Positions 5,180 through 26,347 of a stretch of 26,347 nucleotides of DNA are shown piece by piece. The translations under genes and the position numbers were made by a program. Source of the stretch: a virus (lineage: Duplodnaviria > Heunggongvirae > Uroviricota > Caudoviricetes); IMG/VR virus record IMGVR_UViG_2832576359_000003, positions 1-26,347 of that record, one strand, 5' to 3'. The first letter of the stretch is position 1. Every line of letters begins with the position of its first letter. Below the pieces are notes generated by a model. It was not told the origin of the DNA, made no database searches, and was given only the letters and a program-made list of their open reading frames with translations.

Positions 5180-5195
5180 GTCGTGACTACAAACT
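5180..5195 (+). promoter_or_regulatory. Putative late promoter 1 (portal operon)
   Basis: GTCGTGAC-TA-CAAACT, followed by a GGGGG SD and the portal ATG at 5220. Confidence 0.7.
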
Positions 5196-5219
5196 CATCG
5201 TTAAAACCATGGGGGTGTT

Positions 5220-6971
5220 ATGTCCGATTCAGCCGCGTCCGCAGCCTTTGACGGGGCCGCGCCCGAAGACGAGCGCTCCGAAGCGCTTGGCGCGCTGCAG
5301 CGCGAATACATGCCGACGCAGTCGGATTTGCTGCCTCCGGAGCACGTTCGTCAGATTCTTCAATTTGCCGAGTACAGTTTCGACGAGCCGTTCGCCAAGG
5401 CCATCGCGGACAACGGCGCGCCGTTCCCGAGCGAGGCCGCGCGCAAGAAGTTGCGCGGCATGCAGTCCGTGCAGCTCGACGGGTTCACGATCAATATCCA
5501 GGGCGATTTCTGGGAGCGGCCGACCGCGCTGTCGTATGACTCGTTGCGGCTCATGGTCGCCAAGACACCGATCCTGAACGCTGTCGCGATGACGCGCGTT
5601 CGGCAAGTTCAGCGCTTCTGCCGCGTCGCCGAGAAGGGCGTCGACGCCCCCGGATTCGATATCCGGCACGTTGACCGCAAACACCAGCTCACGAAGGCCG
5701 AGCAGGAGTCGATCGGGCTCTTGAATCGCTTCATGGTCAATTGCGGGTGGGAATTCAACCCGCGCCTTCGGAAATCGCTGCGCCGCGACTCGCTCTCGCA
5801 GTTCATGGCGAAATCGGTGCGCGACTCGCTCGTGCTCGACTCGGCGCCGATCGAGACGGAATGGAAGCGCAACAAGAAGCTGGGCATCGACGGGTTTTAC
5901 CCGGTCGACGGCGCGACGATCCGCCTCTGCACCGAGGACGGCTTTCACGGGAATGAGGCCATCTGCGCGATTCAGCTCGTGGAAGGACGCATCACGGCGG
6001 CCTATACCCACGACGATCTGATCTACGAGCCGCGCAACCCGCGCACGGAGGTCAACGCGGTGGGCTATGGCATCTCCGAGACCGAGCTGCTCGTGCGCGT
6101 CGTGTCGGGCTACTTGAACGCTATGACGTACAACATCAAGGGCTTCGACTCGAACCAGATCCCCAAGGGCGTCCTGAACCTCGTTGGCGATTACAGCGAA
6201 GCAGACTTGAAGGCCTTCCGTCGCTACTGGAACTCGCTTGTCAAAGGCGTGAGCAACGCCTGGACGCTCCCCGTGCTCGCGGCCAAAAACAGCGAAGCGA
6301 AGGCCACGTTCGAGAAATTCGGCGTCGAATTCAACGAAATGTATTTCGCGAAGTGGATGACGTTCCTGACGTCGATCATTTGCGCGCTGTGGGGCATGTC
6401 GCCGGCGGAGATCAATTTCGACAGTTTCTCGGGCGGCAATACGTCGCCTCTTTCGGGTTCGGACACGGCAGAGCGCTTGGCCGCCTCCAAAGATTCGGGG
6501 CTGCGGCCTCTGCTCGCGCACTACGAAAACCTGTTCAGCGATTTCCTCATCGCCGAGTACTCGGACAACCTCGTGTTCCGGTGGACGGGGCTCGACCCCG
6601 AGGACAAGGAAGCGAAACAGGAAATGCGCAAGCTCGTTCTGACGGTCAACGAGATCCGCGCGGAGGAAGGGCACGAGGCGATGGAAGGTCCGCTCGGCGA
6701 TGCCCCGGTGAATCCCGCGTTGATTCAGCCGTGGATGGCCTTCAACGGCCCGCAGCCGGCCGAAGGTGCCGACGGCGGCGCCCCGGGTGCTCCTACCGGC
6801 GCAGGCGGCGCGCGGGCCGCAGATCCGGACGCCGAGCCCAACGAAAACGACACCCCCGAAGAAGACGCAGCGCCCGGATCGGAATCTAGCTTCGGCGAGC
6901 AGCCGGGCGAGGACTTCGGAAAGGCATTCAATCTGCCGCCCATTTATTCGACTGAGGACATGCTCGCATGA
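5220..6971 (+). CDS. Portal protein (583 aa), HK97-family, SPO1/Twort-like
   Basis: Motifs FYPVDGATIR, GYGISETE, PKGVL, NAW.LPVL, EMYFAKWMTFLTSIICALWGMSPAEINF, SKDSGLRPLL, TVNEIRAEEG. First gene of the head module, with an acidic C-terminal tail. Confidence 0.92.
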   Translation: MSDSAASAAFDGAAPEDERSEALGALQREYMPTQSDLLPPEHVRQILQFAEYSFDEPFAKAIADNGAPFPSEAARKKLRGMQSVQLDGFTINIQGDFWERPTALSYDSLRLMVAKTPILNAVAMTRVRQVQRFCRVAEKGVDAPGFDIRHVDRKHQLTKAEQESIGLLNRFMVNCGWEFNPRLRKSLRRDSLSQFMAKSVRDSLVLDSAPIETEWKRNKKLGIDGFYPVDGATIRLCTEDGFHGNEAICAIQLVEGRITAAYTHDDLIYEPRNPRTEVNAVGYGISETELLVRVVSGYLNAMTYNIKGFDSNQIPKGVLNLVGDYSEADLKAFRRYWNSLVKGVSNAWTLPVLAAKNSEAKATFEKFGVEFNEMYFAKWMTFLTSIICALWGMSPAEINFDSFSGGNTSPLSGSDTAERLAASKDSGLRPLLAHYENLFSDFLIAEYSDNLVFRWTGLDPEDKEAKQEMRKLVLTVNEIRAEEGHEAMEGPLGDAPVNPALIQPWMAFNGPQPAEGADGGAPGAPTGAGGARAADPDAEPNENDTPEEDAAPGSESSFGEQPGEDFGKAFNLPPIYSTEDMLA

Positions 6972-7315
6972 GTACGGCCGTATTTTTCAAGGCGATCAAG
7001 CCGGCGAAGTCTCCCAAGGCAGGGAAGGCCTCGAAGATCAACAAGCAGGGGGACGGCAACCCTCTGGCCGGTCTCCTGTCGATCCTCACCGAGCACAAGG
7101 TGGGGCAGAAATTCGGGCCCGACGTGGTGAAGGACGACCACGAAGTCACGTTCAAGGCCGGCACTTTCGTCGGCTCGGGTAAGGTCCGCGCAACCGGAAA
7201 GCATGGCTGCAAGGTCGAGGACGAAGAGGGCCGCGCGCACGACGTGCGCTGGCACGAAGTCACCGGGCACAAGGACGGCGGATCGGGCAAGCAGAAGGGC
7301 AATGCTGAAAAATAA
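6968..7315 (+). CDS. Small basic protein (115 aa), candidate internal head protein with an SH3-like beta C-terminus
   Basis: ATGA overlap with the portal gene, N-terminal FFKAI motif, Lys-rich. Confidence 0.7.
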   Translation: MSTAVFFKAIKPAKSPKAGKASKINKQGDGNPLAGLLSILTEHKVGQKFGPDVVKDDHEVTFKAGTFVGSGKVRATGKHGCKVEDEEGRAHDVRWHEVTGHKDGGSGKQKGNAEK

Positions 7316-8504
7316 CGTGTTCCTCGATATCGGCCCGCTTTCGTGTGCGTGCTCGGACCACGTGCTCGGCACGATCGCGAAGGCGCTGTCAGGCTCGGAC
7401 GGCCTGTCGCACGACATCTGGGCGCTCCACGAGAGCCCGTTCGTGCGCTCGCTCGTCGAACTGTTCTCGTCGCGCGGCCTGCTGCAGCTCGACAAGGTGC
7501 AGACCGAGCTCAAAGCATGGGTCGCGGGCAAGCGCTTCATTCCGAACGGGCTCGGTGTCGACGGACGGCCCGTGCTTTCGGTCGGCCGGCTGGATGCGAA
7601 CGAACTCGCGCTCGTGCGCATCTATCTCGAGAACCTGCCGCCCGAGAAATTCACGGCGGCCGACTGGAGCCTGTTGGTCGACTATCTCGTGAGCCGTTAC
7701 ATGCCACCCAAGGTCGCATATAGCGAGGCGGAGTGGCTGACGGTACGCTCCACTTTCATGGGAAAGGTGCAGGCGAACATCGCAAATCTGAACGCCGCGC
7801 AGGCGGAGGGACTCGTTGCCGCTCTGCCGAGCACAGTCGCCGAGGCGAAACGCGAGTTCAGCCCTTCGCCTTCGCTTCAGGCGATTATCGACTTCGGGCT
7901 CGAGCGCTGCGCCGACAACATCACCGCGATCAACGACGCGACGCGGCACCGAATCAAGCGCGTGATCATGAATCACGAAGAGCAGCGCTTGCTCGGCGAT
8001 CGACCGCCGGAATCGGCGTTGCAAACGCAGCTCGTCGACGAGTTCGCTGCGCTCAATCGTGACTGGCGTCGCATCGCTCTCACCGAGGTCGCCGAGAACG
8101 CCGGCAACGGCATGATTGCCTCGGTCGCGCCGGGCGGCCGCGTGCGGCGCGTCGAGCAGTACGTGGGTTCGTGCGACTTCTGCCGGAAAATCCACGGCCG
8201 CATCTTCACCGTCGTGTCGCCCGATAAGAAGGACAAGAACTGGGACACGGAGGTCTGGGTCGGCAAATCGAACATCGGCCGATCTGGCGCGAAGATGAAG
8301 CGCACCGATGATGGCCTGGTGCCGCGCGCCGAGTCCGAACTGTGGACGGTGCCAGCCGGCCCCGTTCATCCCCACTGCCGCGGTATCTGGGTTCCCGTCG
8401 AGGACGCGAAGCCGACCGACGATCCGTCGTTCGCAAAGTGGCTGGACGCGCATTTCGCTAAGCACCGCCGGTCCGCCGAGCAGCTCGCAGAATCCTTTCG
8501 CTAG
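7302..8504 (+). CDS. Head morphogenesis protein, Mu gpF/SPP1 gp7-like (400 aa)
   Basis: WRRIALTE...GNG, CDFC and HPHCRG motifs. Position after the portal. Start MLKNNVF at 7302. Confidence 0.85.
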   Translation: MLKNNVFLDIGPLSCACSDHVLGTIAKALSGSDGLSHDIWALHESPFVRSLVELFSSRGLLQLDKVQTELKAWVAGKRFIPNGLGVDGRPVLSVGRLDANELALVRIYLENLPPEKFTAADWSLLVDYLVSRYMPPKVAYSEAEWLTVRSTFMGKVQANIANLNAAQAEGLVAALPSTVAEAKREFSPSPSLQAIIDFGLERCADNITAINDATRHRIKRVIMNHEEQRLLGDRPPESALQTQLVDEFAALNRDWRRIALTEVAENAGNGMIASVAPGGRVRRVEQYVGSCDFCRKIHGRIFTVVSPDKKDKNWDTEVWVGKSNIGRSGAKMKRTDDGLVPRAESELWTVPAGPVHPHCRGIWVPVEDAKPTDDPSFAKWLDAHFAKHRRSAEQLAESFR

Positions 8505-8519
8505 TCGTGACGCCGTAAT
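8504..8519 (+). promoter_or_regulatory. Putative late promoter 2 (leaderless 73-aa gene)
   Basis: GTCGTGAC-GC-CGTAAT, with the ATG exactly 7 nt after the final T. Overlaps the inverted repeat TGACGCC-N5-GGCGTCA (8508-8526). Confidence 0.65.
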
Positions 8520-8525
8520 GGCGTC

Positions 8526-8747
8526 ATGCACAAGTTCACCGTCTACGAGCTACACCTCGCGGCCTATATCAAATCGAACGGCGCCACGTTCGATGGCCTC
8601 GATGGTCGCGGCTTCAAATTCACCTCAGATATCTCGGTCGACGCGTGGAAGGTCAAGCACTCCAACTCGTGCTGCCGTCGCGTTGATATCGAGCTAATCG
8701 GGCTGCGCAACTTCTTGCGCGACAAGTTCCCCGCAGAAAAGTCGTGA
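8526..8747 (+). CDS. Small protein (73 aa) resembling the DUF5659-type pattern (LAAYI..G...F.F)
   Basis: Fills the gap between the Mu-F and protease genes exactly. The family resemblance is from memory only. Confidence 0.75.
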   Translation: MHKFTVYELHLAAYIKSNGATFDGLDGRGFKFTSDISVDAWKVKHSNSCCRRVDIELIGLRNFLRDKFPAEKS

Positions 8748-8756
8748 CGCGAGCAT
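8741..8756 (+). promoter_or_regulatory. Putative late promoter 3 (protease-scaffold-capsid operon)
   Basis: GTCGTGAC-GC-GAGCAT, with the ATG 8 nt after the final T and no SD. Its TGA is the stop of the 73-aa gene. Confidence 0.7.
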
Positions 8757-8763
8757 TGCCTTC

Positions 8764-9648
8764 ATGACTCCGCACACGAACAACGAAGCATTGCTGAGCA
8801 CGCTGCCCGATTTTCTCAGCGTGTCGCAAATGCTCAAGGCGACACCCGCGACAGAGGGTGACGCTCGCTTCGTGTATCTCGAAGCGTCGAATCAGACGCG
8901 TGACCTGCAGGGAGAAGTACTGCTCGCGAAGGCCCTCGAGGAGTCGGCCTCGTATTACCTCAAGTTCGGAAATCTGGATCTCGAACACTTCACGCAAATC
9001 GGCGCGAAGCAGGGCATCCCGATGTACGAGTCGTACGAAATCGGCAAGCCCGTCGATGTGCGTGTCGATGGCACGCGCACTTTCGTCAAGGGCCAGATCT
9101 ACACCGGCACCGGACCGGCTGCCGAGAAAGCAAATCTGTTCTGGTCGTCTCTCACGCAGATCGATCCGCCGAAGGACTGGTACCCGTCCGTCGGCGGTGG
9201 CGTTCTCGGCAAGAGCATCGCAATCGACCCGGAAACACAGCAGCCGTACCCCGTGATCACGAAAGTTCGGTGGTCGAACGTCGGGTTCTCGCGCACGCCC
9301 GTGAACCCTGACCTAGAAACAGTCTCAACGATGCCGATCGGCGTCCTCACCAAGTGCTGGGGAGCCGCGGGCATCGATCTACGCAAGTCCTTGACCGCTG
9401 GCTATTCGACCGACTCCGCGTCGATGACCGGCGGCGAAGCGCTGCGCATCCAGTCGCTTCAGGGCGGCAAGAGCAAGTCATACCGCGACTTCCGCGACGA
9501 GCTTGCAGGCGCCTTCATGAAGGGCGAAATCGCCGCTTGCGACAAAACCTCTTTGGTACGGGAGGCCGGCGCGCGTTTCGGTCTTTCTGACGCCGACGCC
9601 GCGCTGTACGTGGGGCGGTTTCTTGATGACCTCAAACGCGAGAACTAG
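8764..9648 (+). CDS. Prohead (capsid maturation) protease (294 aa)
   Basis: EAS...RDLQGE, LDLEH (candidate His), WYPSVGG (candidate Ser), ITKVRWSNVGFSRTPVNP. Located upstream of scaffold and capsid. Confidence 0.85.
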   Translation: MTPHTNNEALLSTLPDFLSVSQMLKATPATEGDARFVYLEASNQTRDLQGEVLLAKALEESASYYLKFGNLDLEHFTQIGAKQGIPMYESYEIGKPVDVRVDGTRTFVKGQIYTGTGPAAEKANLFWSSLTQIDPPKDWYPSVGGGVLGKSIAIDPETQQPYPVITKVRWSNVGFSRTPVNPDLETVSTMPIGVLTKCWGAAGIDLRKSLTAGYSTDSASMTGGEALRIQSLQGGKSKSYRDFRDELAGAFMKGEIAACDKTSLVREAGARFGLSDADAALYVGRFLDDLKREN

Positions 9649-9656
9649 GAGCACTG

Positions 9657-10409
9657 ATGAAGTTTGACGAACTGCAGAACCTGATCAAGGGTGCCGACGA
9701 CCTCGCGAAGTCGCTGTCGGCCGCACCCACGGAGCCGATCAATAACGCAGCGGTCGCGGCTGCCGCGAAGGATGGCGCCGCCGCCGGTGGCGATGGAAAC
9801 ACGACCGCTCAGGATCCCAACGCATCCGCTGGCGATACGCCGGCTGAAGGCGACGAGGAAGACGAGGACAACCCCCTCGCGAAGTCGTTCTCGCTGACGC
9901 TCGAAGACGGCACGACGCTCGAAGGTTTCGACGGCACCGAACTCATCAAGTCGTTGCGCGCCGAGCTCGCTGCCGAAAGCGGCGCCCGCGTTGCCGACGG
10001 CGAGCAGTTCCTGAAGGCATTCGGCTCGGTGATCAGCATCGTCAACACGCTGACCGCCGAAGTGGACTCGACCAAGAAGGCCAACGCCGCGCTCGGGAAG
10101 CAACTCGACGCTGCGGCAGCTGAGATCGCAACCCTGAAGGCCGCAGGCGAAGAACTGACGAAATCGCTCGCGACGTTCGGTAACGAAGGCCGCGGGCGTC
10201 GTGCGGCCACCCTCGTCGTGCACAAGCCGCCCGTCGGCGCCGACGCGGGCACCGACCCCGTCCAGCCGTCGAAGGCCGAGATCCTCGCGAAGGCATTGAG
10301 CGCCATGCAGTCCGGCGCGATTTCCGGCTCCGAGGCCTCGCGCATCGAAGCAACTCTCAACGCCGGGCAGCAAGTGTCGAAAGCGCTGCTCGACCGCATT
10401 TTCAAGTAA
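9657..10409 (+). CDS. Probable capsid scaffolding protein (250 aa)
   Basis: AGGAG SD, helical/coiled-coil Ala-rich sequence with an acidic linker, position between protease and capsid, seven hydrophobic-x-K-S/A-hydrophobic motifs. Confidence 0.75.
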   Translation: MKFDELQNLIKGADDLAKSLSAAPTEPINNAAVAAAAKDGAAAGGDGNTTAQDPNASAGDTPAEGDEEDEDNPLAKSFSLTLEDGTTLEGFDGTELIKSLRAELAAESGARVADGEQFLKAFGSVISIVNTLTAEVDSTKKANAALGKQLDAAAAEIATLKAAGEELTKSLATFGNEGRGRRAATLVVHKPPVGADAGTDPVQPSKAEILAKALSAMQSGAISGSEASRIEATLNAGQQVSKALLDRIFK

Positions 10410-10448
10410 TTCCCGCCAACAGGGACTTTTCGGAGGTCTTAGAGAACC

Positions 10449-11897
10449 ATGGATTTTCAACCCGGCAATACTTCCGGCATTTCCACCGCTGGCGCGATGG
10501 GCACGGACGAACTGGCTGAACTGCAGAAGTCGCTCGAGGCAGGCTACGAGACCGACGTCGACGGCATGACCGGTGGCTCGGCGCTGCGTATTCAGTCGCT
10601 CGACTTGAATCTGCAAGCGACCGTGCAGCAGAACCACCACTTCGTGCTGTTCAACATGCTGCCGAAGCCCCGCGCGACGGCCGTGCTGGACGAATGGACC
10701 GAACAGCATGACATCGGCGGCTTCCTGGGCTCGACGTTCAATACCCAGGACGGCGCTGCGCAGCAAACGAACGGCAACTACGAACGCATGGTCGGCCAGG
10801 TCAAGTACATGACCACCTATCGTTCGATCCCGATCGTGCTGCAACGCCAGAACAACATCGTCGACGCTACCGCGATCGAAACGACCAACGGCACGAAGCA
10901 GCTGCTCACGGATATCGAATTCACGATGTTCGAAGGCGATTCGTCGGTGGTGCCGCTCTCGTTCGACGGTATCTACGCGCAGATCAATTCGCTGGACTCG
11001 GACGACCATATCATCGATTTGGCGGGCGCACCGCTGAACTCGATCGATGCGATCGCGACGGCCGCCGAGGTGATCTACGGCTACGGCAACTTCGGCCGCG
11101 CGACGGACATCTTCATTCCGCCGAGCGTGCAGACGGACCTGAACCAAGACCTGGACCCGGCATTCCGCGTGCTGCTGAACCAGGGCGCGCAGAACACGGT
11201 TCGCGGTACGTCGGTGTCGGGCATCCAGACGACCTACGGCGAGATCAAGACGCGCAACGACGTTTTCATCCGTGACGACAAGCTGAAGAAGCCGTTCGAG
11301 ACCGTCTCGCCGGCGCTCCAAGCAATCGCCGCCGCGAACGCGTTCAAGCCCGCTACGGTCACGCCGACGGCTGTCGCGACCGAGGTCGGATCGGCATGGC
11401 AAGCCTCGCAAGCGGGCAACTACTACTACGCCGTGGCTGGTATCAACCAGAACGGCCAGTCGCAGGCGCTCGTATCGGCACAGGTTGCGGTCGTCTCGGG
11501 CGGCGCTGTCTCGCTCGCGATCGCCGCGTCGGCAGGCGGAACCGAAACGGGCTACGTGATCTATCGCGGCCGCCTGAACGGCACGAACGCGCTGACCGAT
11601 ATGCGCGAGATGATCCGCATTCCGAAGGCCACGGGTGGCACGACGACGTACGTCGACACGAACTCGGAAATCCCCGGTTCGACGCGGGCATACATCCTGA
11701 ACTTGGCAGCGGAAGACCACGCTATCGCCTGGCGCCAGTATCTGCCGATGATGAAGATCCCGATGGCCGCGGTGAACAGCCCGATCATCCCGTGGCTGCA
11801 AATGATCTGCGGATATCTGCGGATCACGAAGCGCAACCAGCACGTCGTCGTGAAGAACATCGTTCCGACGCGCGCTGCCTGGAAGCCGTTCGGCTAA
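10449..11897 (+). CDS. Major capsid protein (482 aa), SPO1/Twort/K-like
   Basis: KSLEAGY...GGSALRIQSLD, IEFTMFEGDS, LSFDGI, FGRATDIFIP, YVIYRG, YVDTN..IPG, YLPMMKIPMA, VVVKNI correspond to motifs I recall from the phage K/A511 capsid protein. GGAGG SD. Confidence 0.9.
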   Translation: MDFQPGNTSGISTAGAMGTDELAELQKSLEAGYETDVDGMTGGSALRIQSLDLNLQATVQQNHHFVLFNMLPKPRATAVLDEWTEQHDIGGFLGSTFNTQDGAAQQTNGNYERMVGQVKYMTTYRSIPIVLQRQNNIVDATAIETTNGTKQLLTDIEFTMFEGDSSVVPLSFDGIYAQINSLDSDDHIIDLAGAPLNSIDAIATAAEVIYGYGNFGRATDIFIPPSVQTDLNQDLDPAFRVLLNQGAQNTVRGTSVSGIQTTYGEIKTRNDVFIRDDKLKKPFETVSPALQAIAAANAFKPATVTPTAVATEVGSAWQASQAGNYYYAVAGINQNGQSQALVSAQVAVVSGGAVSLAIAASAGGTETGYVIYRGRLNGTNALTDMREMIRIPKATGGTTTYVDTNSEIPGSTRAYILNLAAEDHAIAWRQYLPMMKIPMAAVNSPIIPWLQMICGYLRITKRNQHVVVKNIVPTRAAWKPFG

Positions 11898-11904
11898 GGT
11901 GCGC

Positions 11905-11967: not shown

Positions 11968-11986
11968 CTTCTGAGAGGGTTTGAGA

Positions 11987-12358: not shown

Positions 12359-12381
12359 TCAAGCAGCTCTGCCGTAAGAAG

Positions 12382-12416
12382 TGCGTCGCGAGGTTCGCCT
12401 CCCGACGCATTTTTTT
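12382..12416 (+). terminator. Rho-independent terminator of the capsid operon
   Basis: TGCGTCG-c-GAGG-TTCG-CCTC-c-CGACGCA followed by 7 T. Confidence 0.85.
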
Positions 12417-12430
12417 CGTGATCGCATCCT
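12416..12430 (+). promoter_or_regulatory. Putative late promoter 4 (neck genes), variant motif
   Basis: TCGTGAT-CG-CATCCT, beginning inside the terminator T tract. Confidence 0.55.
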
Positions 12431-13313: not shown

Positions 13314-13964
13314 ATGCAGCTGAATCCCGACGACTTCAACAATTTCCTCGGCGGCAACGGCGTCATCGGGCAAGACTACGCGTGGTACAGCTCGAACGCG
13401 TGCCCGTGCGTCGATCCGAACTCCGGGCAGCCGGATCCTGCGTGCCCCGTGTGCGACGGGCAAGGGCGCATCTACGCCGCTCCGGTGCCGGGCGTCGCCG
13501 CGCTCTCTGGCGCTAAGACGCAGCGCGATTGGGCACAGTTCGGGCTGTATGAGAAGGGCGACGTCGTCGTGACGGTGGCCGAGGACTCGCCGATGTACGT
13601 TATCGGCCAGTATGACCGCGTGACCGCGCTCAACGAGACCAACCGCTTTTCGGTGCCGCTGCGGCGCGGCGCCACGATCGAACGTTTGCTCGGGTCGATT
13701 GTGTCGCTCTCGCGTGTGTTCTGGCTCGCGGGGACGCCCGCGACGATCGTCGACGGCGATCTCCCGACGGTGAATGCGGACGGCACGCTTACGTGGGCCG
13801 CGGGCGCAAACGCGCCGCCCGAGGGAGTGCAGTATTCAGTCACGGGCCTTCGCCACATCGACTATTTCTGCTTCGGGAACTACCCGCAGAACCGCCGCAT
13901 GAACCAGGGATCCCGTCTGCCCATCAAGGTCGTACTGCGGGACTGGGACCTGTTCAATCGCTAG
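13314..13964 (+). CDS. Neck / head-closure protein 2 (216 aa) with a CPC...CPVCDGQG zinc motif
   Basis: CPC..PDPACPVCDGQGRIY and YDRVT match the K/SPO1-like neck protein pattern. Start MQLNPDDF at 13314. Confidence 0.75.
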   Translation: MQLNPDDFNNFLGGNGVIGQDYAWYSSNACPCVDPNSGQPDPACPVCDGQGRIYAAPVPGVAALSGAKTQRDWAQFGLYEKGDVVVTVAEDSPMYVIGQYDRVTALNETNRFSVPLRRGATIERLLGSIVSLSRVFWLAGTPATIVDGDLPTVNADGTLTWAAGANAPPEGVQYSVTGLRHIDYFCFGNYPQNRRMNQGSRLPIKVVLRDWDLFNR

Positions 13965-14818
13965 TCGTTGCCCAACTCGCGACGCATGGCCTCGTTCAAG
14001 GCCTCTTGCGCGATCGGCTGAATGTGCTCGGCGACGCCGCGCGCGATGTAAAGGCCTTGCTTCGCGGGGATAACCCATCCGCTGGATCCTTCCACCATCG
14101 TCCTGAACGTCAGATATGACGTGCCGCCGGTCGATTCCTTCATCCGCACCATTCCCGCGAACCTGCGCTGGTCAGCCTGCGACACGCCGGCTGCCGTCAG
14201 GTCCGCGCGCTTCAATCGTCCACCCCATTGATAGCTGTGATTCGGGACGAGGTAGGTCTTCTTCGTCGCGATGTTGGATGCGAACGGGGTCTGCAACGGA
14301 GACGGTGCCATCCCGCTGCCTGGTGTCATGACCGTCGTCTGGCCGGACGGCCGCGTCCCGGTCCCGGTGACTTCGGACGCTCGCATCTGGCTCGCAAGCT
14401 CATAGACGCTTGTCGGCATCGCGGGCGCGTGCGCGGTATTGCCTGGCGTGTTGTGCCGGATGGGGATCACGAGGAATCGCCGACCATCATGCGTGCGGCG
14501 CACCTTCATGCTCGTGTCGAGCATCGTCTTCAGGTCGCGCGGCGGCATACCTGATTCGATCTGTTCGGCGAGCTTGTAGTCGCTGACGATTTCGGCGCGC
14601 ATTCCGGATCCCCAATAGTCGACTTTGATGCTGTCGATATAGGGCTGCTTGTATCCCTGCCAAATCGGCGCGGCCGCGATCGCGTCTATCCAGTTCGACT
14701 GAATCTCTTGCGCGATGGCGCGCACCGCCTGTTCCACCAGCGGAAATACCTGCTTGTTGAAAATTCGATCGACGTCCGAAATTGTCGGAAGGTCGAGCTT
14801 GATCGAGTAATCGGGCAT
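13961..14818 (-). CDS. Neck-region virion protein 3 (285 aa), inverted relative to the rest of the module
   Basis: AGGAG SD before ATG 14818. Motifs PRDLK.ML, FLVIPIRH and YLTFRTM...GWVIP resemble the K/SPO1-like protein encoded at this position. Its stop overlaps the convergent stop (CTAG). Confidence 0.8.
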   Translation of the reverse strand: MPDYSIKLDLPTISDVDRIFNKQVFPLVEQAVRAIAQEIQSNWIDAIAAAPIWQGYKQPYIDSIKVDYWGSGMRAEIVSDYKLAEQIESGMPPRDLKTMLDTSMKVRRTHDGRRFLVIPIRHNTPGNTAHAPAMPTSVYELASQMRASEVTGTGTRPSGQTTVMTPGSGMAPSPLQTPFASNIATKKTYLVPNHSYQWGGRLKRADLTAAGVSQADQRRFAGMVRMKESTGGTSYLTFRTMVEGSSGWVIPAKQGLYIARGVAEHIQPIAQEALNEAMRRELGND

Positions 14819-14837
14819 TTGTAAATCTCCTGCGCTC

Positions 14838-14853
14838 AGTGTTCCGTCACGAG
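14838..14853 (-). promoter_or_regulatory. Putative late promoter 5 (inverted neck gene)
   Basis: Minus strand CTCGTGAC-GG-AACACT. The base 7 nt downstream is the first A of AGGAG. Confidence 0.7.
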
Positions 14854-14869
14854 GTCGTGACGCGAGTCT
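14854..14869 (+). promoter_or_regulatory. Putative late promoter 6 (tail terminator-sheath-tube operon)
   Basis: GTCGTGAC-GC-GAGTCT, with ATG 14876 exactly 7 nt after the final T and no SD. Confidence 0.7.
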
Positions 14870-14875
14870 GTGTGC

Positions 14876-15742
14876 ATGACGATTTCCATGCTCGACCCCC
14901 TCCCGATCGGGAACGCAATCAAGATCGTTTTCGATCCCGCGGACGGCAACGTAGCGCGCCGCGTGCTGCGCACGACGGACACCTCGTTTTCCGGACCCAA
15001 CGACGCCCATTCGGTCGTCGTCTATCAGGGTGACGGCGTGTACGCGGTCGACGCGCATCGCCTGAAAAACGGAACCACCTACACGTACGGCGACTTCATC
15101 TTCGACGGTACCGAATGGGTCTTGTCGTCCGTCGTCCAAGGCACCCCCGAGATTGCGTACGAGGACCGCAGCACAGACGTGCTGACGGTCTTGCGCGAGC
15201 GCCTGACGGTCGGTCTTGAGAACGAGGTCGCTCGCAAGACCCTACGCCCCAAAGAGGGCGTCATCGAGGTCAAAACGGCCCCCCCTGCGTTCGAAGAGAC
15301 GCCATGGCCTCTCGTGACCGTGCACGTCCTCAACGACGGCAGCGCGGAGCGCGGTGTCGGCGAGTTCCTCGACACCGACGTGCAAGACCTCATCACCAAC
15401 GAATGGCTCGAGACGCAGGGCTGGATCGCTCGCGTGCAGATCTCGGTCGTTGGCTGGTCGAAAAACGCCGACGAGCGCATCGCCATGCGCCAAGCATTGC
15501 GCCGCCTCGTGATCGGGAATCTCCCTGTTTTCCAGGGCTACGGCATGACGCGCATCGACTTCTCGCAAACCGACGCGGACGAGATGGCTGCGTATCCGGT
15601 GCCCGTCTATCAGACCGTCGGCACGTTCTCGTGCTTCGCGCCCGCCGAAGTCGTCACCTCGAGCTCGAACGTCGTCACCGACATCGACTCGTCCGCTTTC
15701 ACCCCCGATTTCCCCGATCGGTCCGCTCGGGCCGCCTTTTAA
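14876..15742 (+). CDS. Probable tail terminator/completion protein (288 aa) with an N-terminal beta-sandwich-like domain
   Basis: Position before the sheath. Motifs WPLVTVHVLND, QISVVGWSKNADER..MRQAL and VPVYQT. Confidence 0.7.
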   Translation: MTISMLDPLPIGNAIKIVFDPADGNVARRVLRTTDTSFSGPNDAHSVVVYQGDGVYAVDAHRLKNGTTYTYGDFIFDGTEWVLSSVVQGTPEIAYEDRSTDVLTVLRERLTVGLENEVARKTLRPKEGVIEVKTAPPAFEETPWPLVTVHVLNDGSAERGVGEFLDTDVQDLITNEWLETQGWIARVQISVVGWSKNADERIAMRQALRRLVIGNLPVFQGYGMTRIDFSQTDADEMAAYPVPVYQTVGTFSCFAPAEVVTSSSNVVTDIDSSAFTPDFPDRSARAAF

Positions 15743-18830: not shown

Positions 18831-19131
18831 TCCTCGTTTTCTTTGCGCGACGCCTGAGCAGATCGAGGCCGAATATTGGGCGTACTACTTCGACGCGAAA
18901 AAGAACGGCAGCGACTTCGAAGACGACAATTTCAACCTGGACGACACGATCGCGCAGATCGAGGCCGAGGCGGAATCGGGCGAAGTGGCGATCGAGTATC
19001 AGGTCGGTGCGGAGCCGCGGCGCGCACCCGAAGCCGCGGCGCCGGATCACCGTCCAACCCCTGAAGAAATCCGCGCGATCGACGATTGGGAGGAGGTAAC
19101 CGACCTCTCGAATCTCGGCCCCGGGTCGTGA
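18733..19131 (+). CDS. Frameshift extension of the tail chaperone (GT form, fused product about 236 aa); not in the ORF track
   Basis: The +1 frame opens at 18712 after a TGA, has no ATG, and reads ...ELWFRRTYRLAPTDPRFLCATPEQIEAEYW... to TGA at 19129-19131. Candidate shift site TCC TTT CGA at 18726-18734. Confidence 0.8.
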   Translation, partial: DLVRRRRSRERGRELAKTYELWFRRTYRLAPTDPRFLCATPEQIEAEYWAYYFDAKKNGSDFEDDNFNLDDTIAQIEAEAESGEVAIEYQVGAEPRRAPEAAAPDHRPTPEEIRAIDDWEEVTDLSNLGPGS

Positions 19132-19140
19132 CATCACCCT
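19125..19140 (+). promoter_or_regulatory. Putative late promoter 7 (tape measure-hub-spike operon)
   Basis: GTCGTGAC-AT-CACCCT. Its TGA is the stop of the GT chaperone, followed by an AGGGGG SD and GTG 19169. Confidence 0.7.
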
Positions 19141-19168
19141 GTAGAAATCGAAGAATCAGGGGGTTCGC

Positions 19169-21847
19169 GTGACGGACGTACGGATTGGGGTAGCCGGAGA
19201 CGTTGGGGCCGCGAAAGCGGCCATCAACGTCATGGCCGACGCGATGAACAAGCTCGCGAAGTCGGTCGCCGACGCGAACAAGGTCGAATACAAGGCCCCG
19301 GGCCTCGAGGCCGTCTCCAAGGATCTTGCGAAGATCCAGAAGCAGTTTCAAGACGCCATTCGGCAATCCACGGGTCTGCGTAACGCGCTGAAGAACAGCG
19401 GGCAAAACGCAGACGCCGGGATTCTCAATATCGACTGGAACAGGCTCAACATCGATCCGAAGATCGCGGCGTCGCTCAAGGCGCGCACGATCGCCTTCGC
19501 GACGCAGGGCACATCGCTCGACACGAAAAACACGTTCGGCCAGGCGACCCCCAACCCGGCACCTGCCCCCCGCGATCGTCAGTCGCAATCCTCGACGCGC
19601 GGCCCCGGTGTCGGCACGCAGGCGGCTCAATCGTTCGCGAGCGGCGTGGGCGGCGCGGCCGGCCAGATCGGCAACAGTGCAATCAAGGGCGCCGCTTCCG
19701 GCGCGAAGGCCGGCGTCGATCCGGATGAGGGCGGCATCAACATCCTGGGCGGCGTTGGCGGCCTCCTGAAGGGGGCAGGTATCGGCGCGGTCATCGCGGG
19801 CGGCCTGGCGGCCGGGAAAGCCGTTTCCAACGGCATCGATATGGCGAAGGATCGGGCCATGACGCTCGACACCCTAAAACGCCAGATGGGTGACCTGGGA
19901 TTCAGCTTCGACGAGCTCAAGGAATCGGCTAAAGGTGTCAGCGTAAGTCTCGGCGTCAATTCGGCTGAGTTCGCGCGTCTGGAGCAGCAAAATCTGCAGG
20001 CCTCGCACGGAATCGTCGGCAACGAGTTGCACGACTCGACCGAGTTCGGCGTCGGCGCCGCGCGCGCGTATGGCATGGACCCGTCGGCCTATCTGGCTTT
20101 CCAAGGCCAGATGCGCGCTATCGACCCTGCGACGGACCATCGCCAGCTCGCGACGTACATCGCCGAGGCCATCAACGGCGCGGGCAGTAAGGCGCTCCCG
20201 CAGGAGGTCATCCAGGCGATCCAGTCGCTTTCCTCCTCGACGTCGCGCCTGGCGCTATACGCGCCGAATGTAGGCGCTGAAGGCTCTGCCTTCACGTCCA
20301 TGCTGCGTGACAACAAGGTCGGCATGACGCCCGATGTCGCGCAGGCGATTCTCGGGCAGGCCAATTCGTCGATGATGAACATGGGTTCCGCCGGCGAGGC
20401 TGGGAAGAACTTCATCATGCAGGCGCTCAACGACCAGGGCGGCACGACGATGAACCCGCTCGAGGCGCGCGAGCTTGCTTCGGGCGGCCTATTTGCGACG
20501 CCACGCACGCGATTTGCACCGAACAGCACCTACGCCAAGTTCGTGAATGACGACGCTCGCATGTCCGCGCTCGCGAATGGTCCCAACGCCGACCGCACGA
20601 ACATGGAGGCAATCCGTGCCTATGCCGACAAGGTGTCGGGCGGCAACAAGGAACTTGAGCTCGACTTGGCACAGAACCTGTACGGGCTTTCGACACAGGA
20701 TCAGGCAGCGGCGCTGCTCGGTGCCAATCCGACTAGTTACGGAAAGCTCGGCAAGCTTCTTGAAAAATCCGGCGTCTCGCTGAACGACGTGAATGGGTCC
20801 GGGCTGGCCACGCTTGGCCGGCTCTCCGGCGCCAGCGACATGTGGGATTTGAACGGGATCTACCAGGATCTCCAGCAGCGCACCGGCAACTCTGCGCTCT
20901 CCGACAGCGCCAAGAGCGATCTCGAGAAGGCGCACGCCACGGGCGATTTCGATACGTTCCAGCAGGCGATCGCGAAGGCGGTCGCGAGTATGGGCCAGAC
21001 CGAAACGACCGCTACGCAAATGCGCAAGCTCGGCACCGGCGTCGATGACCTCGAAATCGGCGTGGGCGATAAAGCCCTGACCGTTCTCACAACGATCGAG
21101 GGGGGTATCGACAAGCTCGTGAATTACTTCACGAGCGGCGCGGGCGGCCTCGCCGACCAAGTATCGAACTCGCTCGACATCGGCGTTCATCCATCGGGAC
21201 CGGGCGGCACCACTCCGGCTCAATGGAACAACTACGGGTCCTACACGCTCGCACAGAAGCAGCGGGTCATCTCCAGCATGGAGGAGCAGTACAACTTGCC
21301 TGCGGGTTTGCTGAAGGGCGTATGGGGCACGGAATCGTCGTACGGTCGCGACGCGACGAAGGCATCGTCTGCCGGCGCGCTCGGGAATTTTCAGGAGATG
21401 CCAGGAACGATCAAGCGCTACGGCGTCAAGATCGGCGACTTCGCGTCTGAGGCCGACGGGTCTGCTCGCCAACTGAGCGACCTCATCGCTTTGCACAACG
21501 GAGACGTGAAAGAGGCGCTGCTCGACTACGGTGGATTCAACCCCAAGGATCCGAATCGGGCCGTGCGCGGCGCGGGCTACATCGCGAAGGTCGAGGAGGC
21601 GGGCGGCGTAAATGAGCTTGGCCCGCAGATCATTCCCGAGGCGGACAACAAGCTCCCGACGAGCGATCCCTCGTCTTCGTCCAAGGCGGCGAAAGCGGCG
21701 CCGTCGTCGGGCTCAACCGACACCGTTGTCGTCGACATGAACTTCAACGTTCTGGACGCGTCGACAGGCCAAAAGAAGACGCTCAACACGTCGGTGAACG
21801 TGCCGCGCGGCTCGGGCACGCAGTACGTATCGGTCACCGGGCAATAG
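19169..21847 (+). CDS. Tape measure protein with a C-terminal lytic transglycosylase (SLT) domain (892 aa)
   Basis: Long Ala/Gly-rich helical protein after the chaperone. At about 21270-21600: YNLPAGLLKGVWGTESSYG, SSAGALGNFQEMPGT, ALLDYGG, YIAKV. Confidence 0.88.
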   Translation: MTDVRIGVAGDVGAAKAAINVMADAMNKLAKSVADANKVEYKAPGLEAVSKDLAKIQKQFQDAIRQSTGLRNALKNSGQNADAGILNIDWNRLNIDPKIAASLKARTIAFATQGTSLDTKNTFGQATPNPAPAPRDRQSQSSTRGPGVGTQAAQSFASGVGGAAGQIGNSAIKGAASGAKAGVDPDEGGINILGGVGGLLKGAGIGAVIAGGLAAGKAVSNGIDMAKDRAMTLDTLKRQMGDLGFSFDELKESAKGVSVSLGVNSAEFARLEQQNLQASHGIVGNELHDSTEFGVGAARAYGMDPSAYLAFQGQMRAIDPATDHRQLATYIAEAINGAGSKALPQEVIQAIQSLSSSTSRLALYAPNVGAEGSAFTSMLRDNKVGMTPDVAQAILGQANSSMMNMGSAGEAGKNFIMQALNDQGGTTMNPLEARELASGGLFATPRTRFAPNSTYAKFVNDDARMSALANGPNADRTNMEAIRAYADKVSGGNKELELDLAQNLYGLSTQDQAAALLGANPTSYGKLGKLLEKSGVSLNDVNGSGLATLGRLSGASDMWDLNGIYQDLQQRTGNSALSDSAKSDLEKAHATGDFDTFQQAIAKAVASMGQTETTATQMRKLGTGVDDLEIGVGDKALTVLTTIEGGIDKLVNYFTSGAGGLADQVSNSLDIGVHPSGPGGTTPAQWNNYGSYTLAQKQRVISSMEEQYNLPAGLLKGVWGTESSYGRDATKASSAGALGNFQEMPGTIKRYGVKIGDFASEADGSARQLSDLIALHNGDVKEALLDYGGFNPKDPNRAVRGAGYIAKVEEAGGVNELGPQIIPEADNKLPTSDPSSSSKAAKAAPSSGSTDTVVVDMNFNVLDASTGQKKTLNTSVNVPRGSGTQYVSVTGQ

Positions 21848-21851
21848 CGCA

Positions 21852-23357: not shown

Positions 23358-24292
23358 TGAGTCTCGAGCTTGGTGCAGTGGTGGCGGTCTATCCGCAGGG
23401 CACATCGGTCGATATCGTGCTGCGCAATGGCGCGCGCTTGGCGAATGTGCAAGTCATGCGAGGCGAAGCGAGCGACGCGAGCGGCCGGCAGGATCTCATC
23501 GACGTCGGGGGGCCCTCGGGCGAGCAGCGGTGGGTCCTGACCTCCGCGTTCGAGCGCTACGTGCGTGCGGTCATTTCCTACATCGGTCAGGTTCCCATCT
23601 GCCTGGGATTCGTGTTCCCGCAGGTCTCGCAGATGACCTTCGATCGTAAGAATTTTCGCGTCGATCGGCATGGCTCCGACGTCTATTCCACGATCAACGA
23701 CTCGGGCGATATCGAGCAATACCACCCGAGCGGCACGTTCCTTCGCATCGCATCGTCCCCGACGCATGAGGACCTGACCGGGCAAGACTTCGACCAGCAG
23801 TGGGCCATCGAGCGCAACACAAGCGCGGCCGTCTATGTGAACCTGACGGTGGCAAACGCGGGATCGGTTGTGGCCACGTTCGAAATTGACCCGGCCGGCA
23901 ATGTGTCGCTGGTGAACGCGGGCAATCTCACGGCGAAGGTGGGCGGAGATATCGACATCTCTGCAGGCGGGGATCTCGATGCCGAAATCACCGGCACAAC
24001 AACGATTACCTCGGGGGGCGCCGCGACGCTCAAAGCGCCGTCTGTGACGATCGACTCGCCCACCACCACGTGCACGGGGACGCTGACGGTTCAGGGCGCG
24101 CTGACGTTCCAGGCTGGCGCAACCGGCTCGGCAGGATCCGGCGGAGGGGCGGCAATCAGTCTGACAGGGGACGTCTCGGTGACAGGCGGCATCACGTCCA
24201 CGGGCGACCAGGTGGCGGGGAACATCTCGCAAATCAACCACGAGCACACGTCCGAAAACCCGGGTTCGCCGACGAGCCCGCCGATTGCGTGA
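23357..24292 (+). CDS. Baseplate central spike (gpV/gp5-like, 311 aa)
   Basis: N-terminal OB-like region, Gly/Thr-rich beta-helical repeats, C-terminal HEH (INHEHT) metal-binding apex motif. Confidence 0.85.
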   Translation: MSLELGAVVAVYPQGTSVDIVLRNGARLANVQVMRGEASDASGRQDLIDVGGPSGEQRWVLTSAFERYVRAVISYIGQVPICLGFVFPQVSQMTFDRKNFRVDRHGSDVYSTINDSGDIEQYHPSGTFLRIASSPTHEDLTGQDFDQQWAIERNTSAAVYVNLTVANAGSVVATFEIDPAGNVSLVNAGNLTAKVGGDIDISAGGDLDAEITGTTTITSGGAATLKAPSVTIDSPTTTCTGTLTVQGALTFQAGATGSAGSGGGAAISLTGDVSVTGGITSTGDQVAGNISQINHEHTSENPGSPTSPPIA

Positions 24293-24294
24293 TA

Positions 24295-24320
24295 GGACGG
24301 CCGGACTATCCCGGCCGTCC
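24295..24320. terminator. Perfect 10-bp hairpin between the convergent spike and SPOR genes
   Basis: GGACGGCCGG-ACTATC-CCGGCCGTCC. No long U tract on either strand. Confidence 0.6.
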
Positions 24321-24321
24321 C

Positions 24322-24996
24322 TTACTGCGCTTTCGAGGTCAACGGATAGCCGTTGGCCAATGCCGTATCAGATATTCCGGTGGCGCGATATTTCTTGACG
24401 GCTGATTCGGCTTCGGACCGCGCGTCGAACGGTCCCATTCGCAGCAAATAGACGCCGTCACGCTCCAACACGAACGTCGAGAGGCCCTGTGATCCGTTCA
24501 AATACGCGGCCCAAGCGCTCGCCTGCGCGAGGTTCTTGTATTTCGCCAGTTGCACGTAAATGTGCTTGCCGTCCAGAGCTTGCGGAGGCGTCGTCTGGAT
24601 ACTCGCTTCGCTCGGCGCCGACTTCTGAGGCTCCTCTGCTGGCTCCCCATCGCCGAGCTTCATATCGGTCGAGGTGAATTCCGTTTGCTCGCCCTCGTGC
24701 GCCCAGGTCACGGAAAACGTGTTGACGTGTTCCCCTTTGGTAACCACAGCACACCCTATGTTGACCGTTCCGTCTTTCTGGTTTTTCGCGAAGACGAGCG
24801 ATCCCTTCGGATCACGGGGGACGTTTGCATAGCCATCCTCCGGCATATTCGAGCAGGGGGCGTAGCTAAATTGAATCGTGTTTCCAGTCAGCTTCGACAC
24901 CTGGTGGGCGATCACAATGCTGTCCGCGATGCTTGGCATGCTGACGGCGCTGAGTATCAATCCGGCGAGCAGCAATCTGGTCGATTTATTCGTCAT
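24322..24996 (-). CDS. Secreted SPOR-domain protein (224 aa), antisense moron
   Basis: N-terminal Sec-type signal (MTNKSTRLLLAGLILSAVSMPSIA). C-terminal IYVQLAKYKNLAQA...GVYLLRMGPFDARSEAE matches the SPOR pattern. Start at 24996. Confidence 0.82.
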   Translation of the reverse strand: MTNKSTRLLLAGLILSAVSMPSIADSIVIAHQVSKLTGNTIQFSYAPCSNMPEDGYANVPRDPKGSLVFAKNQKDGTVNIGCAVVTKGEHVNTFSVTWAHEGEQTEFTSTDMKLGDGEPAEEPQKSAPSEASIQTTPPQALDGKHIYVQLAKYKNLAQASAWAAYLNGSQGLSTFVLERDGVYLLRMGPFDARSEAESAVKKYRATGISDTALANGYPLTSKAQ

Positions 24997-25036
24997 TTTT
25001 GCTTGTGTGTTGGTCTGACAAATGGACTCCGGGACG

Positions 25037-25045
25037 AGTCTATCA
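25037..25045 (-). promoter_or_regulatory. Possible extended -10 host promoter for the SPOR gene
   Basis: Minus strand TGATAGACT (TGn-TAnnnT), about 40 nt upstream of the ATG. Confidence 0.35.
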
Positions 25046-25079
25046 CCTAGCGCGCGCATGCCTCCCGCGGCCCCCGCGC

Positions 25080-25095
25080 GTCGTGACGCCACAGT
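25080..25095 (+). promoter_or_regulatory. Putative late promoter 8 (baseplate operon)
   Basis: GTCGTGAC-GC-CACAGT, with ATG 25102 exactly 7 nt after the final T and no SD. Confidence 0.7.
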
Positions 25096-25101
25096 CGTGG
25101 C

Positions 25102-26347
25102 ATGGTCTCCTCCCTGTCTTCGATCACATCGTCCGTCTCGTCAGTCTCGTCGACGCTGTCGTCGTTGTCTGGCGCGCTGTCCAACCTGAGCCCGCCATCG
25201 AGCCAAAAGCCGGGCGATCGGCCCGTGCTGTTTGCTCTCATCGACGGTACGACAACCGGCTCGTCGGCAAGCTCGAGCGGCGGCTCGGATAGCTCGTCCG
25301 CACAGACGCAGTCGATCACGTTGAATATCCGTCCGGAGGAAATTACGCGAAGCGCGCCGTCGCGCGCCGTCGTGCAGCAGACGTTCGGGGGCGCCTGGGT
25401 CGACGATTGGGGCACCGGGCTGACCCAGGTGAACATCTCGGGCACGACGGGGTGGCGAGGCGTGCAAGGCTCCGACGGCATCGACCTGTATATCGCGCTC
25501 AAGGGGATGGTGTGGAACAGCTTCTATCGGAAGCGGAACGACGCCCGAAAAAACGGGCAGGACCCCAATCTGGTTGTCCTGAAATTCGTCGACGCGCTCG
25601 ACAGCACAGTTCTAAGCGTCATTCCGACGCAATTCACGATCCGTCGCTCGAAGTCGCGTCCGCTGCTGATCCAATACAACATCTCGATGATCGCGCTCGC
25701 GCCAACGACGTACACGCCTGCGTCGAGCAGCGGCGTCTCCGGATTGCTCTCTGGGCTGCTGAGCGCGGCGGGGCTCACGTCGATCGCATCCGCCCTCAGC
25801 ACGATTACGTCGGCGATTTCCACCGCGGTGTCGTTCGTCGAAAACGACATCATTGGTCCCGTGACGGCGCTGTTGAGCACGGCGGCCGCGGTGATCGGCG
25901 TCGTCGTGTCGGCTGTTGCAGCGGGCGTCGCGGTGGTGTCTTCGGTACTGAGCATCGCCACGCTCGTGGCCCAAACCGGCGCGCAGATTATGCAGACGCT
26001 GGCGACGGCGGACGGCCTTTCGAATAGCACGATGTCGTCGCTCGTGACGACCGGTGGGGCTTTCACGAACTGCTATTGCTTGCTCTCCAACACGGCGAGT
26101 TCCGGTTACACCTATCCCGATTATTCGTCGATCGACGGTGCATCGAATTGCTCGTCGACGGCGGGCGGCTCGCCCTCGAGCACGTACACGATTGATGGCA
26201 CGAACCCGTTCGACGACATCGTCGGGACGACGGCTGCGCCACCGGTCCAGATCAGCGCGGCGGCAACGAACGCGCTCCAGCAAATCGTTCTCGCCGATCC
26301 AGTCCTGTCTCCTCTGACAAAGACCCAGATTTCCTCTCTGCTGACGA
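25102..26347 (+). CDS. Baseplate core / tube-initiator-like protein, truncated by the window end (at least 415 aa); not in the ORF track
   Basis: I translated an open frame from ATG 25102 to the window end. NIRPEEITRSAPSRAVVQQTFGGAWVDDWG...ISGTTGW and FTIRRSKSRPLLIQYNISM resemble the K/SPO1-like baseplate protein. Confidence 0.85.
   Translation, partial: MVSSLSSITSSVSSVSSTLSSLSGALSNLSPPSSQKPGDRPVLFALIDGTTTGSSASSSGGSDSSSAQTQSITLNIRPEEITRSAPSRAVVQQTFGGAWVDDWGTGLTQVNISGTTGWRGVQGSDGIDLYIALKGMVWNSFYRKRNDARKNGQDPNLVVLKFVDALDSTVLSVIPTQFTIRRSKSRPLLIQYNISMIALAPTTYTPASSSGVSGLLSGLLSAAGLTSIASALSTITSAISTAVSFVENDIIGPVTALLSTAAAVIGVVVSAVAAGVAVVSSVLSIATLVAQTGAQIMQTLATADGLSNSTMSSLVTTGGAFTNCYCLLSNTASSGYTYPDYSSIDGASNCSSTAGGSPSSTYTIDGTNPFDDIVGTTAAPPVQISAAATNALQQIVLADPVLSPLTKTQISSLLT

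Follow-up and report, generated by a model that had tools for sequence, protein, structure and literature searches.

The window analysed here, 26,347 bp of the IMG/VR record IMGVR_UViG_2832576359_000003, corresponds to bases 1-26347 of contig C11, a phage-plasmid contig of 90,347 bp and 62.8% GC that belongs to a 6.64-Mb genome of ~64% GC. Our subject is a 16-base motif, the octamer GTCGTGAY followed by 2 bases and the hexamer nAnnnT, which recurs at operon starts of this DNA and which we consider as a candidate late promoter. C11 carries a complete virion module of the contractile-tail type (portal, protease, SPO1-like major capsid protein, sheath, tube, tape measure and baseplate) as well as a TrfA/ParA plasmid module at 36397-39003, and outside the window it also encodes two adjacent Cys-rich proteins, here called ZnF-A and ZnF-B, that will be central to what follows. 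Its relatives are ~90-kb myoviruses, namely the Pseudomonas phages Touem01, Dolphis and Jeremy, Morganella phage Mecenats66, Bordetella phage PHB04, Aeromonas phage ST4 and Yersinia phage fHe-Yen8-01; contigs of ~90 kb from Burkholderia and Paraburkholderia encode close homologues of C11 proteins.

All eight copies of the motif described for the window in the original prediction are present, seven of them having been placed one base too low, and the corrected positions are collected in Table 1. Each has a T eight bases past the heptamer TCGTGAY and seven of the eight have an A at the second position of the hexamer, as had been claimed; the exception, the copy at 8505, is conserved in the closest relatives (loci L048, L020 and L021). 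A conserved G directly before the heptamer, which had escaped the first description, is found at 15 of the 17 sites that we count on the whole of C11 and at 89% of the sites in the family. We likewise recover the four copies that have an ATG 6-7 nucleotides (nt) past the final T, and in three of the four genes concerned this ATG is the earliest possible start codon of the open frame. Four TCGTGAC heptamers inside genes (8057, 13567, 15312 and 26042) do lack the A/T frame. The gene names given earlier hold for the protease and for the baseplate protein, and 'tail terminator' could not be confirmed for the gene at 14876, relatives annotating it as head-to-tail adaptor. The TGA stop codon of the 73-residue open reading frame (ORF) falls within the heptamer of the 8742 copy, and the product of the gene that starts at 19169 is a tape-measure-like protein of 892 residues.

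Table 1. Motif copies (putative late promoters) on C11, genes behind the copies of the window, and the candidate reader genes. Contig and window numbering coincide; aa, amino acids.
Feature	Position	Strand	Remarks
Putative late promoter copy	5181..5195	+	G at 5180; TCGTGAC-ta-CAAACT; heads portal operon; predicted start ~5203; 17-nt leader with GGGGG ribosome-binding site; portal ATG at 5220
Putative late promoter copy, variant -10 (CGTAAT)	8505..8519	+	ATG 8526 after 6 nt; 73-aa ORF
73-aa ORF	8526..8747	+	Predicted leaderless; no function assigned
Putative late promoter copy (GAGCAT)	8742..8756	+	Protease ATG 8764 after 7 nt; heads protease-scaffold-capsid operon
Head maturation protease	8764..9648	+	Predicted leaderless; first in operon with major capsid gene (10449-11897)
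Putative late promoter copy	12416..12430	+	TCGTGAT-cg-CATCCT; T, not G, before heptamer; heads adaptor genes; ~21-nt leader to ATG 12458; no clear ribosome-binding site
285-aa conserved gene	13961..14818	-	Behind the minus-strand copy, its putative promoter
Putative late promoter copy	14838..14852	-	TCGTGAC-gg-AACACT; heptamer from 14852 down to 14846; would drive the 13961..14818 gene; predicted start ~14831; 13-nt leader beginning AGGAG; ATG at 14818
Putative late promoter copy (GAGTCT)	14855..14869	+	ATG 14876 after 6 nt; heads sheath/tube operon
288-aa virion protein	14876..15742	+	Predicted leaderless; first in sheath/tube operon; relatives: head-to-tail adaptor
Putative late promoter copy (CACCCT)	19126..19140	+	Heads tape-measure operon; ~22-nt leader with GGGGG; GTG at 19169
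Putative late promoter copy (CACAGT)	25081..25095	+	ATG 25102 after 6 nt; heads baseplate operon
Baseplate protein gene	25102..26347	+	Predicted leaderless; continues to 26379 of contig
Site beyond window	27017		Baseplate J
Site beyond window	29314		Fibre genes
Site beyond window	32079		Lysis cassette
Site beyond window	49994		HU-like gene
Site beyond window	66983		Small-terminase-like gene
Site beyond window	79760		Large virion effector (injected effector)
Sites beyond window	82528, 83191		Two small genes
Site beyond window	83446		Large terminase
ZnF-A	48902-49483		Cys-rich, 193 aa; invariant C24, C35, C54xxC57, H63, C85xxC88, C112xxC115
ZnF-B	49486-49881		Cys-rich, 131 aa; keeps HxCxxC, CxxC, CxC, C

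The bare heptamer is little enriched, with 21 occurrences in the window versus 12 expected and a density on C11 that is 0.7 times that of the host. The full motif occurs 17 times on C11 (0.188 per kb) versus 66 times in the other 6.55 Mb of the genome (0.0101 per kb), corresponding to a 19-fold difference in density, and when the preceding G is included the counts become 14 on C11 versus 12 elsewhere, an 85-fold difference. The 12 host copies sit inside long open frames, and the motif is not in use on the host chromosome. On C11, by comparison, 16 of the 17 sites are intergenic, although intergenic DNA accounts for only 11.8% of the contig (calculated binomial P ~2e-14), and 16 are oriented toward the next gene. 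The scan of the whole contig bears out the placement before late genes that had been proposed from the window, the motif not being equally frequent inside genes. Nine of the sites lie past the window end (Table 1), every virion, lysis and packaging operon of C11 has a site at its head, and together the 17 sites constitute a late regulon. A copy with one mismatch, GGCGTGAC-ga-CACGAT at contig positions 53768-53782 on the minus strand, precedes the minus-strand gene 53148-53726 and may be an eighteenth promoter.

The same motif, with identical spacing, is found in Touem01, Dolphis, PHB04, ST4 and fHe-Yen8-01 and in 79 of 80 related IMG/VR loci, the latter collected with a capsid-profile search (capsid identity 44-76%, GC content 42-67%); a search with the product of the 14876 gene alone gave no loci, and the capsid alignment was used instead. 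The 1.42 Mb that these loci comprise contain 330 copies in the orientation of the genes versus 22 in the opposite one, and no match to a reversed control pattern, and each of 28 whole genomes contains 2-28 copies versus 0-1 control matches. TCGTGA is invariant across hosts of 42-67% GC, and when the sequences that precede the protease gene in ten genomes are aligned, no block other than the octamer is invariant. The Dolphis record opens at the terminase ATG and closes with a motif copy plus six further bases. We found no description of the motif in the literature on these phages and on leaderless late promoters in Pseudomonas phages. In Mecenats66 (loci L016 and L017) two motif sites precede the protease and the tail operon, and the other junctions have TGnTAnAAT promoters and normal ribosome-binding sites.

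In order to describe the position of the start codon relative to the motif we have used 283 unique sites from the 80 loci, obtained with a search pattern that did not require the preceding G. An ATG lies 6 or 7 nt past the final T at 165 of them, and 163 of these ATGs open frames of at least 50 codons (median 294); the codon at that position is ATG in 163 cases, GTG in 1 and TTG in 0. Leaderless mRNAs require a 5'-terminal AUG, and the nearly exclusive use of ATG at the 6-7 nt position fits this need. The leaderless arrangement is found for the protease orthologue in 68 of the 80 loci and for the orthologue of the 14876 gene in 55, and in both cases the protein alignments begin within the first six residues. 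Gene starts deposited for Touem01 at 1234, 14216, 25277, 30831, 36339, 42712, 52268 and, on the other strand, 42652 are located 20-22 nt past the first T of a copy, and since these were placed independently by the annotators of that phage, their coincidence with motif-linked ATGs argues for the leaderless geometry. The orthologues of the baseplate gene at 25102, Touem01 52268 and the Dolphis ORF at 23688, each start 21 nt past a motif of their own. It would appear from such distances that the messenger often starts at the ATG itself, so that the mRNAs are predicted to be leaderless. The abundant capsid, sheath and tube proteins are encoded by internal genes that are not directly behind a copy and that keep their own translation signals.

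In Dolphis (locus L009) the motif places predicted leaderless starts at 14320 and 23688, and in the record gp15 and gp25 are annotated as starting at 14482 and 23748, respectively. Because the longer frames align with orthologues, the annotated starts of both genes are probably too far downstream.

Counted from the predicted transcription start, the octamer spans -22 to -15 and is followed by 2 bases and the hexamer, with A at -11 in 16 of the 17 C11 sites and T at -7 in all 17. The distance from the hexamer to the ATG is that usually found between a -10 element and a transcription start, and family sites favour C at -1 and A at +1. No -35 box could be found, the best match to TTGACA between -46 and -27 comprising 2-4 of 6 positions at each of the 17 sites, and in the family profile no base stands out upstream of the octamer. 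A scan of the late region with the sigma70 consensus gave 2 sites in 20 kb versus 3.6 expected, at chance level or lower, and terminator-like hairpins in the same region are also at chance level. Every computational test agrees with what had been proposed at the outset, a compact promoter without a -35 that depends on a phage factor and is often leaderless, with starts that are predicted positions.

An architecture of this kind might in principle be read by the sigma70 polymerase of the host alone, as an unusual extended -10 with contacts to Y-15, G-14 and the spacer, late timing then deriving from a general switch away from -35-dependent promoters. Where Y is T and a G follows, the canonical TGn at -15/-14 is indeed generated, G-14 is present in 60% of family sites, and Mecenats66 has plain TGnTAnAAT promoters at many equivalent junctions. 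Position -15 is C, however, in 86% of the family and in 14 of the 17 C11 sites, and a match to the extended -10 (T-15, G-14) is confined to the TCGTGAT-G subset. Nor would a promoter serving the host enzyme alone be expected to occur on the host chromosome at chance level and only inside genes, or to retain TCGTGA without change over so wide a range of host GC contents; factor-independent late promoters would, moreover, be on in the plasmid prophage state, and the link to ZnF-A homologues described below would be left unexplained. We judge this explanation to be quite improbable.

An argument that the motif copies act as promoters comes from the divergent gap at 14819-14875, whose 57 bp hold two back-to-back copies, a 13-nt leader and a 6-nt spacer and nothing else. 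The genes at 14818 and 14876 both need a promoter, and the motif copies are all that the gap has to offer. The divergent pair is also found in Touem01, at 42672 (minus) and 42691 (plus), and in three further divergent gaps of C11 (5070-5219, 66793-67024 and 79733-79836) the motif copies again stand alone. Such gaps are difficult to reconcile with a motif that is not a promoter at all, that is, an octamer serving as loading site for a Q-like antiterminator with nAnnnT as a sigma-dependent pause, or an RNA processing site or translation signal, since in all four an upstream transcript is impossible. In favour of a function of this sort, ZnF-A and ZnF-B occupy on C11 the place that the late regulator Q has in lambda and the lambdoid phages, lambda Q is a zinc protein, and many copies separate genes that run in one direction, so that they would be part of read-through RNA. 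There are, however, 17 copies per genome rather than one, the strict distance from hexamer to ATG is the geometry of a promoter, and no conserved RNA structure was seen. That the motif acts other than as a promoter is, in our view, extremely improbable.

If the motif is a promoter that the host enzyme does not read unaided, a phage-encoded reader is called for, and the original prediction had advised a look for a sigma-like or activator gene elsewhere in the genome. No sigma factor was found on the contig, with a Sigma70_r2 search giving no match (divergent sigmas would escape it), and an activator-type candidate, ZnF-A, was. A search with PF00940 for a T7-type polymerase matched nothing, control genomes included, and is uninformative. 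We rejected a weak Sigma70 r4-type helix-turn-helix (HTH) at 67097-67156, since the protein that contains it has matches to small-terminase PHROGs and is a late gene product, and set aside the AraC-family and TraR-like genes of Touem01 and Dolphis, which have no C11 counterpart by BLAST, neither having been searched for specifically. The non-structural genes shared in a comparison of four genomes are those for SSB, DNA methylases, a phosphatase, the small-terminase-like protein and the adjacent Cys-rich pair. ZnF-A is encoded in 28 of 28 family genomes, generally not behind a motif copy of its own, and ZnF-B adjoins it in the four fully compared genomes and in 20 further genomes examined.

The pair closes an operon that starts with a Cro-like gene, opposite a CI-like repressor, with genes for an O-like replication protein and a RusA-like resolvase in between; the first late promoter, at 49994, follows 113 bp past the operon end. 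This lambdoid-style control region, at contig positions 45003-48664, comprises a CI-like repressor with an S24-peptidase domain, a divergent Cro-like HTH protein, the O-like replication protein and the RusA-like resolvase.

The strongest evidence for a connection between ZnF-A and the motif comes from outside the phage family. A profile search returned 867 clusters of ZnF-A homologues (50% identity), all of them unnamed, and from the distant ones we have chosen nine independent contexts, by protein similarity only, from Burkholderia/Paraburkholderia genomes or metagenomes. These total 83 kb, and of the 11 motif copies that they contain 10 lie within 250 bp of the start of the homologue, a region that makes up 2.7% of the sequence (binomial P = 2.4e-15; 0.023 copies expected from the host background). 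Six of the nine contexts have the strict motif at most 150 bp from the start of the homologue, frequently as two copies back to back; a seventh has the exact octamer with a variant hexamer, and in an eighth the homologue gene belongs to an operon with a copy at its head. In locus L129 the spacing from the motif to the ATG of the homologue itself is exactly the leaderless one.

Most of these contexts are small islands in which the ZnF-A homologue is divergent from an operon headed by AlpA/HTH_17, with one or two motif copies in the gap between them and with integrase/resolvase and defence genes (NACHT, McrBC) nearby (loci L124/L125/L127, L126, L128, L129, L131, L133 and L134). ZnF-B is absent from the islands, and some ZnF-A homologues are fused to winged-helix DNA-binding domains. 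By analogy with P4, the Burkholderia islands that carry ZnF-A homologues may be satellites of the phage family. A motif at the start of the homologue gene is a correlation of the kind that an autoregulated specificity factor would leave behind. ZnF-A is in our assessment the best candidate for the reader of the octamer, perhaps together with ZnF-B. It is this candidate reader that is new here, with a protein family tied to the motif both in phages and in unrelated islands.

ZnF-A, or some other phage protein, could also be an unrecognised sigma-like subunit that replaces sigma70, in the manner of T4 gp55 or phiEco32 gp36. The single compact block from ~-22 to -7 without a -35 is reminiscent of the one-block promoters of phage sigma factors, T is rare at -12, and ZnF-A is similar in size to gp55 and adopts no known fold. 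As against this, the one sigma-type match on the contig is the weak HTH of the small-terminase-like protein noted above, and neither of the Zn-finger structure models is helical in the way of sigma domain 2; the A-11/T-7 frame and the start distance of 6-7 nt are typical of sigma70-family holoenzymes and do not separate the two readings. We think a sigma-like reader unlikely.

We consider it likely, then, that this phage-plasmid and its family use GTCGTGAY-N2-nAnnnT as their late promoter, that this promoter is read by a phage factor for which ZnF-A is the best candidate, and that its messengers are often leaderless. Loss of the repressor would allow the repressor-controlled early operon to produce ZnF-A and ZnF-B, and ZnF-A would then bind GTCGTGAY at -22 to -15, in place of a -35, and recruit or remodel the host polymerase. 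The hexamer would function as a weak -10 element that retains the critical A-11 and T-7 and is melted by the polymerase. The host enzyme, most likely the sigma70 holoenzyme, would start 7-8 nt past the final T, and at about half of the promoters the start base would be the A of the ATG of the first gene, giving an mRNA without leader or ribosome-binding site. The first gene of the operon would thus be translated in leaderless mode, with the internal capsid, sheath and tube genes relying on ordinary ribosome-binding sites.

A number of points weigh against this interpretation. Position -12 is mostly C or G and not T, which is unusual for sigma70, and Mecenats66 keeps both ZnF-A and ZnF-B, yet has only two motif sites. 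To our knowledge, efficient leaderless translation of abundant virion proteins is unexpected in Beta- and Gammaproteobacteria, and transcription starts have in every family member been read from the sequence. Neither ZnF-A nor ZnF-B matches a Pfam (E <=0.05), PHROG or NCBIfam family, and neither resembles a solved or named fold, with no PDB match at E <=0.001 and VIA-align Z <=3, so that DNA binding and contact with the polymerase are unsupported by homology. Apart from one entry labelled ArsR family, the clusters returned from the AlphaFold DB were unnamed ZnF-A/ZnF-B homologues; PDB sequence profiles yielded nothing beyond generic zinc ribbons, and the RNA-polymerase zinc-ribbon rows (Elf1, TFIIS) have E above 1 and were not taken as evidence. 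Finally, the link to the motif could make the ZnF-A genes targets of the regulator and not the regulator.

In comparing the motif with known systems we find that its layout is nearest to the Lpa-dependent late promoters of P1 and to the middle promoters of T4, and that Thermus phage Lalka27a is the nearest experimental case; sequence, box position and candidate reader differ from all three. The late promoters of P1, itself a phage-plasmid, consist of a -10 and a conserved element around -22, with no -35, and the likeness to our motif is one of layout only; the P1 element is an inverted repeat of other sequence, whereas the GTCGTGAY box is asymmetric, and P1 late mRNAs have leaders. These promoters depend on an early-made phage activator, Lpa, that acts on the host polymerase together with SspA (PMC8201110). 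Among the 30 contig proteins scanned there was no PHROG or Pfam match to an Lpa homologue or late-promoter activator. T4 middle promoters (MotA box, AsiA) similarly occur in many copies and combine a sigma70-type -10 with a phage-specific upstream box that stands in for the -35 and is recognised by a protein of the phage. Their box is at -30, in contrast to one at -22 to -15 directly against the -10, no MotA/AsiA homologue was found here, the -10 of our motif is weaker (C/G at -12) and half of the transcripts are predicted to be leaderless.

Lalka27a, like YS40, has many late promoters with a special -10, one conserved upstream base and no -35 (bioRxiv 10.64898/2026.04.20.719267). It has no recognisable phage sigma or polymerase, and most of its transcripts are leaderless according to 5'-end data (bioRxiv 10.64898/2026.04.20.719267). 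Lalka27a is a structural relative, with a capsid protein 31% identical to that of C11, but its motif is TAGGGT plus a C at -25, and leaderless mRNAs, rare in Proteobacteria, are the ordinary case in Thermus. We found neither a ZnF-A homologue nor the GTCGTGAY motif in Lalka27a.

The Ogr protein of P2 and Delta of P4 are small Cys4 zinc-finger proteins that activate several late promoters, and a P4-type satellite has its own activator copy behind an activator-dependent promoter, which resembles the islands where the ZnF-A homologue and the AlpA operon carry the motif. ZnF-A and ZnF-B are nonetheless without sequence similarity to them and without a match to PF04606 at the Pfam threshold given above, Ogr sites are near -55 and have dyad symmetry, and Ogr-dependent promoters have a normal leader. 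The late promoters of T4 (gp55/gp33/gp45) also have a single compact element, no -35 and many copies before virion genes; their element, TATAAATA, is at -10 only, its reader is a sigma-like protein linked to the sliding clamp, and no gp55/gp33/gp45 homologues were found here.

The motif provides a precise rule by which late transcription units and true start codons can be placed in an unstudied phage family that is widespread and whose hosts include Pseudomonas, Bordetella, Aeromonas, Yersinia, Morganella and relatives of Burkholderia, and it suggests the two corrections to Dolphis gene starts given above. It predicts that in these phages the operons for portal, protease, tail, baseplate and terminase begin with leaderless translation, a mode thought to be marginal in Proteobacteria, and with one unnamed zinc-finger protein family tied to the motif the question of the reader is open to direct experiment. 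A more far-reaching proposal is that the ZnF-A family forms a new class of transcription specificity factor that binds GTCGTGAY at -22 to -15 and lets the host polymerase fire without a -35, that it is common to ~90-kb phages and Burkholderia integrase/AlpA islands (possible satellites, with cross-talk as between P4 and P2), and that late operons of Proteobacteria phages are routinely opened by leaderless mRNAs; we offer this tentatively, rating its chances at slightly below even. Should the promoter and its candidate reader be confirmed, 16 bp of DNA and one small protein would also make a compact orthogonal expression switch.

Two minor observations remain. A minus-strand gene for a protein of 205 residues, at 24322-24939 of the window, is isolated between the plus-strand tail and baseplate operons; no homologue was found in Touem01, Dolphis or Mecenats66, and it may be an inserted accessory gene. 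Short hairpins are located at or just past the predicted starts of three late transcripts (contig positions 29329-29350, 50003-50018 and 83461-83480), the one after the 29314 site being GACCTCC-aaatgatc-GGAGGTC.

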